Of a DNA stretch of 64,000 bases, positions 56,269 to 61,751 are shown piece by piece. The notes below the pieces were generated by a model. The model had not been told where the DNA came from and did not search any database. It saw only the letters and a list, made by a program, of their open reading frames with translations. Each line of letters opens with the position of its first letter. Position 1 is the first letter of the stretch. The stretch comes from Elsinoe ampelina (Eukaryota), in assembly GCA_010093995.1 (NCBI GenBank), contig ML992510.1, positions 1,181,339 through 1,245,338 on the forward strand, given 5' to 3'. The translations under genes and the position numbers were made by a program.

Positions 56269-59200
56269 AAGGAGAAATGTGGGAGAGATAGGGAGGTACA
56301 TGGTACATACCCCGCAAAAGAAATAGGGGAGGCTGGAGGGGCGACTCCAAAAACGTTGCAATGGCTACATCAAGCGTGGTTGGATGGATGGCAATTTCCT
56401 CTGATGTGACGAGGATAGCTTCGATGCATTGCATTGACCCACACATGTCAGCTAGGAAAGGAAACCCGAGATATAACGTCGTGTCCAGAGGATTTTCGTG
56501 GTTCGTGGATCGAAAGTGATTAATTTAACGAACGTGTTTGCGACGCAGATCAGTTGTGGCACCGACGAACTTCGGAGTATGGCTCTTCGTGGCCGCCACA
56601 AGCGCCGTGGTTCATGCGGGTTCGGAAGTGTGATCAACTAGGTTGACATCCGACCAGGACGAAGGATGGAAAAGGTGGTGTGGAGCGGTCAAGGTATAGG
56701 GCGCCACCGGATTGGAAAACAGGCGGTGGACGAAAGGGCTGACAGTGGTACGAGGAAGATATGACGGTTCTGTCACTTGTCTAAAGAGCCTCATGAAGGT
56801 ACCTTGCAGTTAGTATCCCCCTAAACAGTAAGGCGAGATGTCGGGAGCCACGCGTGATCGCCACTCGGGCAATCTTCTGGAAAGGAAAATGCATGTCAGG
56901 AGTGGGAAGTTGACGTCGTGCCATCACTGTCTCGGATATCTCTCGCATGTCATTTGATACTATTCATATACAAACCCCGATCGGTGGAAGACACGTCTAG
57001 GGCTGGAAGCAATGGGGATCATGATTAAGACGAGATACGGTTCGTTGCCCGTCAATTGCAGGATTGGCACTGACACGAAGAAGCAGAAGAAGTAAAATAA
57101 TCAGCTTGCAAGGGCATGCACGTCATCAAAACGAGCGACAAGAGTCAAGAGTCAGGGACCAGGACCCAGGTCGGGTCGCTCTGGCTAAATTAGCGACACA
57201 TGGAATAGATCGACGAATGACGATAGGCTTGCAACCGAGCCAGCAACATCAACGTGGCATGGGATCGAGGTCTCGTATCATCACTCATCAACAGAGATGC
57301 ATCGGAATCTCAAACAGTGTTTCTCGTTTCCACTCTCACTCAACGAGCATGGCTCGGCACCTGCTGTATAAGGGTCGTTGACGTCTACCAGTGATTAGTA
57401 TTCTAAGCATTGACGATTGACGGAGTTCAGGACCGTTGGGAAGCTCTGGTGGGCACGTTTCAACTCTGGCCGCGCAGCAGTGTATAGCCTTAGGCTCTAC
57501 GTTTTACGTACAAGTGGCGGCTACACCAGACCCAGAGCGGCAGTTGACCGGGAATGCTCGCGTGCCTGGCTCAAGGTTGTGGATCCTGTATTTGGGCATC
57601 GCACTACTGGACAATCATCATGGGCGGTGAAGATCGGTGCCCTGGAGAACGTCTGGAGACTCGCGAGTCGCAGACACATGTTCAGCCGCAAATGACGGGA
57701 GGCTGCAGTTGCTGAGCAATTCCGAGCGTACATGGCAGGAAATCACCACGATAACAGGCACTGTACATGGTACAAGCAGGGCGGAAGGATCAATAAACTG
57801 GACCCGTCGAGGTGAACGCAGGCCGATCCGCCAACGGGACAAGACATGCGACGAATCTGGCGCCGGCCCTCCAGGGTCCAAAATGTTTTTTAATTGCAAG
57901 CAGGACAGCGCGGTGAACAGTGCGAGACCCGGTGTTCAGCAAATTGCGTCTGCTTCTCTGACACGAGTCAACCCTTTGGTCCGCCAGCCTTGTGAGTTTT
58001 CCCTCGGCCTTCGATTCAATCTTCCAGAAGGCTGTCTGGCCCCCAGGGCGGGTTAGTGGTTCCACCCGCAAGATCGGGCAGGTGGTGTGCAACAGCTCTG
58101 TGCCAACGTGGGATCTGAGGCCGTGGCTGTGACATGGGCGCGACGCGTTTGACAACGACGCCGAGGAGAGTTGTACGAGGACGTGTCGGTTACGACAAAC
58201 GTCGTGTCGCGGCCGAAGTCATCCGTGAGCAAAAAAGGATGGGCGACGACATGCAGGGTGAGCAGTAATGAGAATGTGATGAGACGTGTGATAGGTCGGA
58301 AGCAGAGGAAAAAACAATATCCAACCTGGAGTTACACCAAGAGTCATAGGGCAGGCAAGGAGCCTTGGGTACAGGGTACAGGCTGCAGCGGTGATTCACA
58401 CGCAGACTCCAGGCATTGCTGGAGCGTGGGCGGGAAGTGTTCAACGTGCTTCCCCGGTCACAGAGACTCATGCAGGGCGCGAAGCAAAAAAGTGGCATGG
58501 TCGCACGTCGAACGGATACTGTATCCTTAAGCGAAGCGAGATGAAGCTGGACCAGTGGTTCACAACCACTGTCCATGACTGAGGGTCAGATAGGTTACGC
58601 CAGATGACGGCTTTATTTCTGGTTCCTGGTCGGCTTGGTCGAACGACGAGAAGGAAGTTACCGGGGGCGAGGAGGTGAACGGGTATAAGGCTTCTCATGG
58701 TGTGGCAGCACCTGTGGACTCTATTCATCCATGGTGCGGGCGTGTCTCGATGCTTGCTGCGATTGACTACATCCGTGGCCGCACTAACAGCTGCACCTAA
58801 GCAGATCCCGCCGATCTGTCTGATGTCTGCCGCGACACTGAACGCCTCCACGCGCCAGTCATTTGGATGCAATGCTCCGAGGATGGGATGCTGCAGAGAC
58901 ACGGCTGGACATGGTAATCCGGCCCCCACGAGAAGCTGCACATGCTCCAGAGAGAAATACGGATAGGCTTTTGCCGCTACCGTCCATGGCTCCAAAGCCA
59001 GTCGGGACAGTGGAAAGCATCAACGCCTGAGCCATATTTCAGATCCCGACGGTTCAGGCTGATGCTTGATCGCTGGGCGGTGACATGGACCTGTCGAGGA
59101 CCTGTCGAGGGTACAGGGTACACCAGGATACGGAGTAATTAGAGACGGGGTATAGATATTCATGAGACGCCTCTTAAGGACACGGGGACAAATCTTGCCT

Positions 59201-59399
59201 TGGTTTTCAACTCACTACTGCATCGTGCTACCGTATATTCCTCTTCGAATATTCAGCCTGTCGCCGACAGTCGCCTCCCCAAGCTACACCAACCAGCAAC
59301 CAGATCCTATCCCGACGGCTCTGAGCAGCCGCAACATCCGCCTCGGTGTTCAGTGCACAGTACTTTCGTACAGTACAGTACTCGACGTTCGGTCCAAAG

Positions 59400-59597
59400 G
59401 TATGTCAGCAGAACCGCCACCCGGTGCCAACTCTCACATGCTGTCCCCGAATCCCAACAAGTCAGTCATCAAAGCAGCAGCAATGAGATGCCGGCCAAGT
59501 CCGTGGGTCCGATGCTTTTGTTAACAAGAGAAGTGTCTCGCTCGAGTCTACCCTTCTCGTCGATTAGAGTTTGGTGCTAACGTCGCTTTACGTGTAG
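59400..59597 (+). other. Putative 5'-UTR intron of SFP1 (198 nt)
   Basis: AAAG|GTATGT donor at 59400, GCTAAC branch at 59576-59581 and TAG acceptor at 59595-59597. Confidence 0.6.
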
Positions 59598-60088
59598 CGT
59601 GCTGGATTACTGTGGATTTTACTCCACCGATACGTTTAGTATTCCTTGTGATTAATCCACCCTGACGTCTCGTCGTCTCGCCCAACTTTTGACCATCTCC
59701 AACTTATTCCGTACCAACCATTTGACGACTACCAACATACACAACCGCTATCCTGGCTTCACACGCGAGACACACTCCTCCCTCTCTCTACCACTCGCCA
59801 ATCGTCCGCGACCGCGAGTCCACCGCCTCGCCCATCTCCACACCGCCGCCGCCGCCGAGTCACGCCAGTCGCACCACTTCTTCGGCTACGAGGTCGACCT
59901 TTACCTACTCCAAGCCTCGTCCCTTTGACGAGCCATTCTTTGCAGAGGATACGCTCTTCGGAGCTGGAGGCACAGCCGAGGAACTCATCTTCCTAGACGA
60001 CGACGATTTTGACAACGAGGTAATTTCACATCCCCCTCCCGATTTCACTTCCGCCGCCGCCGCCGCCGCTGCTCCGTCTCTCCCAACC

Positions 60089-61751
60089 ATGGCCACTTCG
60101 GCTTCTCCGATCGATATCGCCACACCCAGGAATAGTCCTCCGGTCCCACAGACTTCCAATCTTACTTCACAAATACAAGCTGCAGCTGGAGCGCAGGATT
60201 ACCAGCAACACAACCAGGGCAGGAACAATTTCACCGACGCCAGAAGAGGGTCCGAGTTCAAGCCCGAGTCGATCGGCTACGCACACAACATGTCTTCGAG
60301 GGCGATACCGTTCAGCGAAAGACAGCGCAGGGGGAGCAATCAGCCAGGCAGTCTCCTCACAGGTATGAGCTGGGGTGGTATGTCTATTGGCAGCTTCATC
60401 CGCGATGAGTGAGTTTCACCTCCATCAACTTGTACCCCAACATCACTGACCACGTACAGTATCATGATGGGCACCTCCCCTTTCAACTTCCAGTCCCCTT
60501 CCTTCCACTCCTCGTCATATCTCCCCAAGATGGAGGCCAACTTCATGAGAGACTACGTTTGCTGTGGCATCACCCTTGACTCGATGCACGAGCTGTTGCA
60601 GCACTACGAGGAGGCACATGCGGGACAACCAAATCAGACCATGGGGCGCACACCAAGGGATCAGCAGTCATACAACGAGGCCCGTCCGCAAGACAATGCC
60701 AATGCCGCCGCTCTCATGCAGCAGCAACAGACGTCTCACAACACCGCTGCGGGTCAGGGTAACATTCAACTCAACGGCATGTCAAACCCCCTCCAGTCAG
60801 CACAGGACATGGATGACCTCGATGCCATGGAGATGGATGAGCCTGCACCAGCAGTCCAACCGCCTCAACACCAGTTCCAACCACAGCCCCAATTCGGCAA
60901 GCAGCAGCCCCGTGCTCCAGCCCTGAATACCGGTCTTGGGAGTGGCTTCCAGACTTCACAAATGTCCACACCTACCACACCACAACCGAACCAGTCCTTT
61001 GGCCTATCGAACAACCCTACCGTCTCATCGGTTAACACCCCCACTTTCGGCCAGACGATCATGGATAGCGTACCCACCTCCCCGTCCGACTTCAACGGTG
61101 TCGACACCCCGAGGGCGGCACAGGGTGAGGGCTTCGACTATTCTGGTCTCGGTATGACAGACCAATTTGGCACCATCGACGACCCGGCCAAGCGTCTCCT
61201 CAGCAAACAGGGCTTCGGCAATATCAACCAGATGCAGAACCAAAGTGACATTGCCAAGCGCATCAGGGAGTCGCAACTCTCGGCTGGCATGGACCCTGCC
61301 GCGTTCAACTTTGGCAGCGACGAGATCAAGCCGTTCAGGTGTCCCGTTATTGGCTGTGAAAAGGCATACAAGAACCAGAATGGTCTCAAGTACCACAAGC
61401 AGGTGAGTTGAAACACACTCCTCTTTCCACTACATAGCTAACATGCAATAGCACGGCCACCAGAACCAACAGCTCAAGGAGAACCCTGACGGCACTTTCT
61501 CTATCGTCGACCCTGCCACATCTATCCCTTACCCCGGCACGATTGGCATGGAGAAAGAGAAGCCATACCGCTGCGAGGTGTGCGGTAAGCGCTACAAGAA
61601 CCTCAACGGTCTCAAGTACCATCGTCAACACTCTCCTCCATGCAATCCGGACCTCAAGATCAATCCCGGCATGAACATGTCCAACAACCTCAACGGCATG
61701 AATGTCAACGTGGCTGGCGCAGGTCTTGTCAGCGACGGCATGGGCATGTAA
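60089..61751 (+). CDS. SFP1: Split C2H2 zinc-finger transcription factor Sfp1; introns 60409-60459, 61403-61451; possible CUG start at 59753
   Basis: GMSWGG.S.GS.IRD, YLPKMEANFMRDY.CC...L..MHELLQHYEE.H, KPFRCPVIGCEKAYKNQNGLKYH and KPYRCEVCGKRYKNLNGLKYH. Confidence 0.93.

Follow-up and report, generated by a model that had tools for sequence, protein, structure and literature searches.

The 64,000-nucleotide (nt) stretch of Elsinoe ampelina DNA studied here, hereafter called the window (contig ML992510.1 of assembly GCA_010093995.1, forward strand), carries the gene for Sfp1, a transcription factor known to adjust ribosome biogenesis and cell size to the supply of nutrients. Directly upstream of the annotated AUG of this gene lies an open stretch of 112 codons, conserved in related fungi, from which a second and longer isoform of Sfp1 is probably made through initiation at a CUG codon. 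The public SFP1 model begins at the ATG at 60089, and the spliced coding sequence (CDS) of the window matches its product, KAF2221623.1 (P0013, Elsinoe ampelina, 520 amino acids (aa)), residue for residue. Both CDS introns (60409-60459 and 61403-61451) run from GT to AG and have been removed in the contigs of three Logan runs, X1, X2 and X12, which we treat as RNA because their contigs lack both of these introns; the second joint, 61402/61452, was tabulated as 61400/61450 with a cut of +2. A Pfam scan of P0013 returned zf-C2H2_aberr (PF17017) at 28.1 bits against a cut-off of 27, and zf-C2H2 at 24.9 bits, slightly under its cut-off of 25.2; a scan of the extension alone returned no Pfam family. 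Relatives carry the source name ‘transcription factor SFP1’. We consider the gene to be the Sfp1 orthologue of E. ampelina, a split or aberrant C2H2 zinc-finger protein, its role as a regulator of ribosome biogenesis being presumed from the family names and from FgSfp1. The features of the locus, all on the forward strand and in window positions, are the following.

59400..59530 (+), inferred 5’-leader intron with a GTATGT donor and its acceptor AG at 59529-59530 or 59532-59533, placed by a junction in run X6
59531..59752 (+), AUG-free leader exon 5’ of the CUG, in which three stops interrupt the SFP1 frame, from contigs of X1, X2 and X12
59723..59725 (+), in-frame TGA situated 9 codons 5’ of the CUG, where the SFP1 frame is closed
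59744..59756 (+), initiation context ACC GCT ATC CTG G, with conserved C at -8, C at -7, G at -6, A at -3 and G at +4
59753..59755 (+), CUG at which the long Sfp1 isoform is proposed to begin; all 43 open reading frames (ORFs) with a non-AUG start have CTG or GTG at the homologous position
59753..60088 (+), N-terminal extension of 112 codons, predicted to be disordered, without Met and without ATG in any frame
59774..59857 (+), conserved Ser/Thr-Pro motif TPPSLYHSPIVRDRESTASPISTPPPPP, family consensus TPPPL(H/Y)YSP..DRGRESTxESTP(I/V)STP
59978..60013 (+), acidic-hydrophobic block EELIFLDDDDFD, also conserved, with the family consensus D(D/E)L(L/I/V)F(L/P)xDDD
60089..60091 (+), annotated AUG and proposed start of the short isoform, in the strong context ccaaccATGg
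60089..61751 (+), annotated SFP1 CDS with exons 60089-60408, 60460-61402 and 61452-61751, ending in TAA; supported by its translation (P0013), the RNA joints and PF17017

Beginning at 59726, the SFP1 frame stays open past the ATG at 60089 and up to the end of the exon, the ORF from stop to stop covering 59726..60412. The original prediction, made from the window sequence alone, held that no AUG occurs between the TGA at 59723 and this ATG, and that an in-frame CUG follows the stop in the context GCT ATC CTG GCT. Both statements are borne out: the span 59513-60088 is free of ATG in all frames, and the CTG at 59753-59755 is preceded by GCT ATC and followed by GCT, with A 59750 at -3 and G 59756 at +4. 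The predicted 112-residue translation was identical upon re-translation, and its runs of five prolines and seven alanines are found at 59843-59857 and 60053-60073. Within 59100-60100, the forward strand contains ATGs at 59162, 59402, 59438, 59483, 59488, 59512 and 60089. Mononucleotide shuffles of 59165-60088 contain a mean of 9.3 ATGs and are free of them in only 2 of 20,000 cases; the real stretch has five (59402 to 59512), every one of them within the putative leader intron. The CTG at 59753 is the sole in-frame CUG, GUG or UUG of the extension, the remaining in-frame near-cognates being ATC (59750, 59801, 59834 and 59987), ACG (59888 and 59951), AGG (59891), AAG (59912) and ATT (60023).

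An obvious alternative is that the extension is translated from an upstream exon with an AUG of its own, spliced in from the donor at 59400 to 59945 or another acceptor, in which case the gene is mis-modelled and has no need of a CUG. A GTATGT donor is indeed present at 59400, ATG 59162 lies upstream of it, and the models of Elsinoe australis (740 and 763 aa in two strains) and Sphaceloma murrayae (695 aa) do reach upstream ATGs. The donor is also used in X6, a run from a close relative (~3% diverged), where a contig joins a match of about 59376-59397 to 59531; in the window species, contigs end at 59456-59461 and resume at 59530, with 59462-59529 uncovered in X1. From this we infer a leader intron of about 59400-59530 in E. 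ampelina. The leader exons flanking it (59163-59399 and 59531-60088, 795 nt) contain no ATG. An acceptor at TAG 59597 for the same donor was ruled out, as X1 covers 59530-59597 and the X6 junction lies at ~59531. The spliced contigs run without a joint up to 60408 from 59530 (X1), 59696 (X2) and 59709 (X12), and therefore the TGA, the CUG and the whole extension are part of the mature mRNA. The splice from 59400 to 59945, which the original prediction had itself named as a threat to its claim, was looked for in these RNA contigs and is absent from their joints, all three runs crossing 59945 unspliced; the reading of an extension stands, and such a splice would remove the best conserved motif of the extension (TPPSLYHSP..DREST..STPPP). 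Moreover, the X6 junction falls 5’ of the three in-frame stops, and whichever of the two acceptors is used, the ORF that begins at ATG 59162, if it is transcribed, stops short of the extension. Since the interval from TGA to CTG contains no AG dinucleotide, no splice acceptor can feed the frame there.

The upstream parts annotated in E. australis and S. murrayae do not resemble each other either. Upstream of the shared T-A-I-L-A-S they have 19 identities over just 44 alignable residues, against 68 of 99 in the extension, and between the two strains of E. australis there are differences at 12 of 118 positions upstream of the Leu, at 3 of 105 in the extension and at 3 of 517 downstream. Strain and species differences thus pile up upstream of the Leu, which argues that conservation starts at the CUG. 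Taking these observations together with the closed upstream frame of most relatives described below, we deem a spliced-in AUG extremely improbable. Separately, run X2 contains a 1495-nt contig at a depth of 24, versus 276 for SFP1, which covers 58900-59461 and ~930 nt further upstream (window ~57967-59461), and short contigs of X1 and X12 lie at 59179-59456 and 59200-59447. Candidates for the X2 contig are a neighbouring transcript, an upstream start of SFP1, or an unspliced precursor.

For the start codon in relatives, a metagenome scan was performed with the seed SWGG(L/V/I)S(V/M)GS. This motif lies downstream in exon 1, and the selection of loci was therefore blind to the start region. The seed matched 216 stretches, 163 of which proved to be relatives; the 80 loci retained comprise 66 distinct exon-1 ORFs besides that of the window, and the start could be located in 48 of these. 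The remaining 18 consist of three with the extension cut by the contig end (L031, L062 and L064), three that are cut and uninformative (L073, L079 and L080), and twelve without an extension, to which we return below. L031 has an in-frame stop 17 nt from the contig end, at the place of ..SPRES-TAAS.. in relatives, which could be a contig-end error or a broken extension. Across the 48 ORFs and the window, the counterpart of the codon at 59753 is CTG in 34 cases and GTG in nine, and six ORFs have an ATG one codon upstream instead; the 43 non-AUG ORFs never use another Leu or Val codon at this position. Clustering at 60% extension identity leaves 22 lineages, namely 14 with CTG, three with GTG and five with ATG. 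In the rest of exon 1, CTG makes up 0.29 of the Leu codons and GTG 0.27 of the Val codons, so that exclusive use of CTG and GTG has a P of ~5e-10, a value that overstates the independence of these lineages owing to their kinship and to that extent counts against our interpretation. Even so, synonymous divergence of the extension (pS) is 0.27-0.73 in 11 of 15 pairs, and 0-0.10 in the other four.

The surroundings of this codon are conserved as well. Among the 17 non-AUG lineage representatives, T at +2 and G at +3 are invariant, G at +4 is present in all 17 and A at -3 in 16 (G in L068), and further upstream we find C at -7 in 17/17, G at -6 in 16/17 and C at -8 in 14/17. An in-frame stop occurs 9-134 codons upstream, with no in-frame ATG in between, in 35 of the 43 non-AUG ORFs, 16 of which are closed within 19 codons; six others run off their contig upstream. 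The conservation of codons -3 to -1 (ACC GCN ANN) may be read as an extended initiation context, and the CCG at -8 to -6 (window 59745-59747) may belong to the kind that boosts non-AUG starts, as has been reported for mammals (PMC13754004). This CCG could also pair with the UGG of CUG-G, although this would amount to just three pairs and shows no covariation. The CUG/GUG extension is not peculiar to this copy and appears to belong to Sfp1 throughout the Dothideomycetes, Lecanoromycetes and allied classes that were compared; the original prediction had drawn its comparison too narrowly.

Several lines of comparison indicate that the extension exists as protein. In a first protein search, five of seven matches cover 92-99% of the extension-bearing query, and the extension is covered by the public models of E. 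australis (740 aa), S. murrayae, Dothideomycetidae sp. 11243 (646 aa) and Vermiconidia (720 aa). A HMMER search of 1.84 billion representatives gave 69 matches at E<=1e-3; most of the 24 that were fetched carry the extension, and many are fragments of exon-1 ORFs. In these alignments conservation sets in at (K/I/N/T)-L-(A/D/E)-S-S, followed by the TPPPL(H/Y)YSP motif, the D(D/E)L block and a Met shortly before ASPIDIATP, and the codon before the conserved Leu always begins with A and the codon after it with G. P0022 (2332 aa) matches query residues 86-125 in 15 stretches and is most likely a low-complexity acidic/Ala repeat rather than a relative. P0042 and P0033, two near relatives of the GUG lineage, agree from QD(L/I)FSQFT onward and are very different upstream, which looks like a frameshift, either from an assembly error or real.

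The ratio of nonsynonymous to synonymous substitution rates (dN/dS), computed for 15 of 19 pairs (leaving out L026/L046, L014/L027, L011/L014 and L055/L071), is 0.12-0.50 for the extension in 14 of the 15, the remaining pair being identical, against 0-0.22 for the exon-1 core, and substitutions within the extension fall mostly at third codon positions. In the 150 nt upstream, indels that are not a multiple of three occur in 10 of the 12 alignable pairs. The close relative X6 combines both patterns, with indels of -2 and -1 nt upstream of the TGA, and of -3 nt and net -6 nt inside the extension. As judged from these comparisons, the extension is evolving as protein under purifying selection. 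The alignment of upstream regions that the original prediction had proposed therefore falls out in its favor, with an open frame, a dN/dS below 1 and a near-cognate codon all conserved; of the frame-breaking indels in close relatives that it had named as its refutation, none turned up inside the extension of X6, where the indels are in frame. Its claim that the CUG extension is real coding sequence gains support from both the conservation of the protein across classes and the purifying selection.

These same data bear on the possibility that the region is an untranslated leader, conserved as a regulatory element of RNA or DNA, and that its frame is open merely by chance. Both the length of the leader and the conserved nucleotides near the CTG would fit such an element. 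However, it would explain neither the third-position bias with dN/dS <1, nor indels that stay in frame inside the extension and break the frame upstream, nor that the annotated Eurotiomycete proteins have this very region as their N-terminus, initiated at an AUG. Furthermore, no conserved RNA structure such as a START-like hairpin was found near or 3’ of the CUG (consensus of -0.29 kcal/mol, 3 pairs, no covariation), and the fold of the window around the CUG shows no notable structure (z-score of -0.96). An untranslated leader of this kind is hardly credible.

What the extension might contribute to the protein can be gathered from its composition. An AlphaFold2 (AF2) model of the extension plus exon 1, based on a 20-row alignment, has a mean predicted local distance difference test (pLDDT) score of 51.1, with residues 1-121 lacking secondary structure, and the extension is accordingly predicted to be disordered. 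Of its two conserved motifs, one is a cluster of proline-directed Ser/Thr sites. In the other, acidic and bulky hydrophobic residues are clustered, at EELIFLDDDDFD and FDEPFFAEDTLF. The acidic block has the composition of acidic activation domains, and a function in activation may be inferred from it.

Not all lineages start at a CUG or GUG. In the ATG-bearing ORFs (L037, L039, L042, L052, L055 and L071), the codon following the ATG is CTC, TTC, TTT or ATC, and never CTG, and the context of this first-position ATG is weak in all five lineages, with T or C at -3 and C, T or A at +4. Proteins of Eurotiales, Onygenales and Chaetothyriales start as M-(L/I/R/F)-(E/D)-S-S...PPPLHYSP, and those of Pleosporales, Lecanoromycetes, Coniocybomycetes, Sarea and Trizodia show (V/A/E)-K-L-D-S...PPPL behind arbitrary annotated N-termini. 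A hidden Markov model (HMM) of the 43 non-AUG extensions matches residues ~2-100 of 14 of 17 named proteins, including those of Aspergillus, Talaromyces, Histoplasma, Coccidioides and Trichophyton, at E-values of 5e-21 to 2e-9 (Z=1000), and does not match the three tested models that are annotated from the internal Met. Because the HMM recognizes AUG-initiated N-termini, the extension is best understood as the ancestral N-terminus of Sfp1 across a large part of the Pezizomycotina (from a comparison of Dothideomycetes, Lecanoromycetes, Eurotiomycetes and allied taxa), where the kind of start codon alone would differ. Homology of the Elsinoe and Aspergillus extensions is based here on the profile and on intermediates. 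The weak-context AUG that seems to replace the CUG in a sister class would make an unusually clear natural control.

If the first start is weak, some ribosomes should pass it, and the region downstream may tell where they go. An internal Met just 5’ of ASPIDIATP is present in 20 of the 22 lineage representatives, and was not located in L037 and L039. Among the 20 located cases, position -3 of the AUG is a purine 16 times and position +4 is G 17 times. From the first start up to this AUG, the spacers of 20 lineages (6232 nt, all frames) contain a single ATG, compared to 53.8 expected from base shuffles and 26.0 from codon-order shuffles, and none of 5000 shuffles was as low as observed. The exon-1 core just 3’ of the spacer, by comparison, contains 113 ATGs versus 74.1 expected. 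Leaky scanning has as its signature a first start that is weak, a spacer devoid of AUGs and a second AUG that is strong, and this signature is kept under CUG/GUG starts in perfect context and AUG starts in poor context alike. Given the depletion of AUG in the spacer and the well-placed internal AUG, leaky scanning with two isoforms can be argued, and we consider it probable that a CUG-initiated long and an AUG-initiated short isoform are both made. The coexistence of long and short isoforms had been claimed in the original prediction, and is now supported by the conserved CUG/GUG context, the upstream stops, the neighboring-codon AUG and the purged spacer.

We must however take into account a number of points that weigh against this interpretation. 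The evidence for initiation at the CUG is evolutionary. Two of the non-AUG ORFs, L066 and L068, have in-frame ATGs 42-89 codons upstream, and contigs lose rare variants, so that a minor alternative splice is possible. A BLASTP comparison of the Elsinoe extension with the Aspergillus thermomutatus protein aligns just the part after the internal Met. Lastly, there are orthologues that do without an extension, and there is conservation in the codons preceding the CUG; each of these two underlies an alternative explanation.

As for the latter, it could be that one or more other near-cognates serve as start, such as the AUC at 59750, which lies in frame directly 5’ of the CTG, or elsewhere a GUG at codon -2, and that the CUG is conserved for another reason. 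Codons -3 to -1 are at least partly conserved, the -2 codon is GTG in 5 of the 17 representatives, and the -1 codon is ATC in Elsinoe, both of which are near-cognate. Yet CTG/GTG at position 0 is the only one of these to be present in all 43 non-AUG ORFs. At -1, L011, L016, L027 and L056 carry AAA, which is not a near-cognate, and L001, L002 and L006 carry ACC. The interval from stop to CTG in the window holds just the ATC, and the conserved A and G take their places, -3 and +4, with respect to the CTG. Hence, we regard the use of another near-cognate as very unlikely, and initiation at the CUG as the better supported option.

The orthologues without an extension raise the question whether only one product matters, being either the long form, or the short form with the extension as a decaying relic in Elsinoe. 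Twelve distinct orthologue ORFs (L007, L010, L013, L058, L060, L063, L065, L069, L070, L072, L074 and L075) have no extension in any forward frame within the flank (up to 2 kb upstream), and therefore the extension is dispensable in some lineages. It would appear from these lineages that the short form can stand alone, and repeated loss of the long isoform is suggested. The dN/dS of the extension also exceeds that of the core. In contrast, the near absence of ATGs from the spacer of 20 lineages (one against the 26-54 expected), with no such depletion in the core, is expected only if ribosomes scan on to the internal AUG, the context of which stays strong where that of the first-position AUG stays weak. 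Elsinoe, moreover, keeps the open frame and both motifs of the extension and shows in-frame indels only, which argues against decay. A single relevant product thus seems quite unlikely to us, if slightly less so than the use of another near-cognate. Among the ORFs without an extension, L007/L008, L010 and L013 are close to L006/L009, which have one, and L058, L060/L061 and L065 resemble the short models of Penicillium.

Taken as two isoforms from one mRNA, the locus might work as follows. The SFP1 mRNA would have a long AUG-free leader, and a fraction of the scanning ribosomes would start at the CUG at 59753 in its extended optimal context (ACCGCUAUC CUG G), yielding a long isoform of 632 residues that carries 112 additional disordered residues with Ser/Thr-Pro and acidic-hydrophobic motifs. 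The remaining ribosomes would pass the 336-nt AUG-free spacer to reach the strong AUG at 60089, and produce the short isoform of 520 residues. The acidic motif of the long isoform may recruit co-activators. This layout, with ~90-140 codons of AUG-free spacer separating a weak first start from a strong internal AUG, would be ancient, the weak start being a CUG or GUG in optimal context in Dothideomycetes, Lecanoromycetes and allies, versus a poor-context AUG one codon upstream in Eurotiomycetes.

More speculatively, Sfp1 could be a sensor of start-codon stringency, kept since the divergence of several classes of the Pezizomycotina, in which the ratio of isoforms is set by the acceptance of the weak start. 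The long isoform would then have a phospho-regulated acidic activation region that the short isoform lacks, and the state of initiation (the balance of eIF1 and eIF5, the availability of eIF2) would be read out as transcription for ribosome biogenesis. We put this forward tentatively, and think it rather doubtful that the role of the two isoforms extends this far. If two isoforms are indeed made by start choice, filamentous fungi would couple the fidelity or capacity of initiation to the transcription of their translation machinery, in a short feedback loop that is undescribed for Sfp1. The comparative pattern, a CUG or GUG in perfect context versus an AUG in poor context and then an AUG-free spacer, leads to clean predictions for reporter and tagging work.

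Pairs of proteoforms from a CUG and an AUG through leaky scanning occur in animals, as in c-Myc, FGF2 and PTEN-L/PTEN-alpha. Cases such as PTEN, NPR and conserved human extensions are treated in PMC5376652, 10.1101/2024.02.16.580719 and PMC3105428. The resemblance to Sfp1 is in the weak upstream near-cognate in good context and the strong downstream AUG, by which one mRNA gives two N-terminal variants; the animal genes belong to another family and another kingdom, and the evidence for Sfp1 is comparative. The closest known case is Neurospora crassa cpc-1, for which a near-cognate N-terminal extension is described, with homologues in Pezizomycotina (Ivanov et al. 2017, PMC5487733). [quoted passage not shown] The gene cpc-1 differs in having several near-cognates that are interleaved with a pair of upstream open reading frames (uORFs), its extension bypassing an inhibitory uORF (PMC5487733), whereas Sfp1 has one conserved CUG/GUG and a spacer free of AUGs, its two starts have no uORF between them, and in other classes the neighboring codon is an AUG. 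The bZIP factor IDI-4 of Podospora anserina is another fungal transcription factor for which a conserved CUG start has been proposed, but as it is described in PMC5487733, this CUG is the only start and the family is unrelated. Sfp1 itself does not occur in the main text of PMC5487733.

Within the Sfp1 family, the Eurotiomycete proteins (Aspergillus flavus, A. niger, A. thermomutatus, Talaromyces, Histoplasma, Coccidioides) share the N-terminus of ~100 residues (TPPPLHYSP..D..STRESTP(I/V)(S/T)TP and the acidic block), and likewise have the zinc-finger C-terminus and an internal Met ahead of (A/T)PIDIATR. They differ in their AUG start (M-L/I/R-E/D-S-S...), which has a poor context in the five AUG lineages for which DNA was at hand. 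Sfp1 of Saccharomyces cerevisiae shares the family name, the zf-C2H2_aberr signature and the presumed role in ribosome biogenesis. In the parts of the literature at our disposal, yeast Sfp1 is described as an activator of ribosomal protein (RP) and ribosome biogenesis (RiBi) genes controlled by TORC1 as well as protein kinase A (PKA), and the text consulted of PMC13254600 has it bind Tra1 of NuA4 and SAGA with no domain mapped. For FgSfp1 of Fusarium, a role in ribosome biogenesis is stated in PMC11603076. No alternative start of yeast Sfp1 is described in those portions of the literature that we examined. We also found no paper linking Sfp1 to non-AUG initiation (near-cognate start, leaky scanning or N-terminal extension), in a search that had most subscription journals and supplements outside its reach. 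As far as these literature searches reach, the mechanism is thus of a known kind, and what is new are the gene, the breadth of conservation, and the exchange of CUG for a weak AUG.

The public gene models differ in where they start. The models of Elsinoe ampelina, E. batatas and E. fawcettii (520-523 aa) and of Friedmanniomyces (563 aa) start at the internal AUG, as do many of Penicillium and some of Aspergillus (~570 aa, from the internal Met), and those of Pleosporales and allied Dothideomycetes (643-921 aa) have been stretched to arbitrary upstream ATGs. Some are filed as partial, starting at K or L in Melanomma and Boeremia, and at K, V or L in others. As such, Sfp1 models in Dothideomycetes and lichen-forming fungi are inconsistent, and constructs for deletion, tagging or complementation that are designed from the short models omit ~100 conserved residues.

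Finally, exon 1 contains two RRxS motifs, ARRGSEF (60230-60250) and RQRRGSNQ (60325-60345), which are kept in nearly all aligned orthologues. RRxS is the consensus of PKA- and Sch9-type kinases. Both motifs sit in the part that the long and short isoforms have in common.

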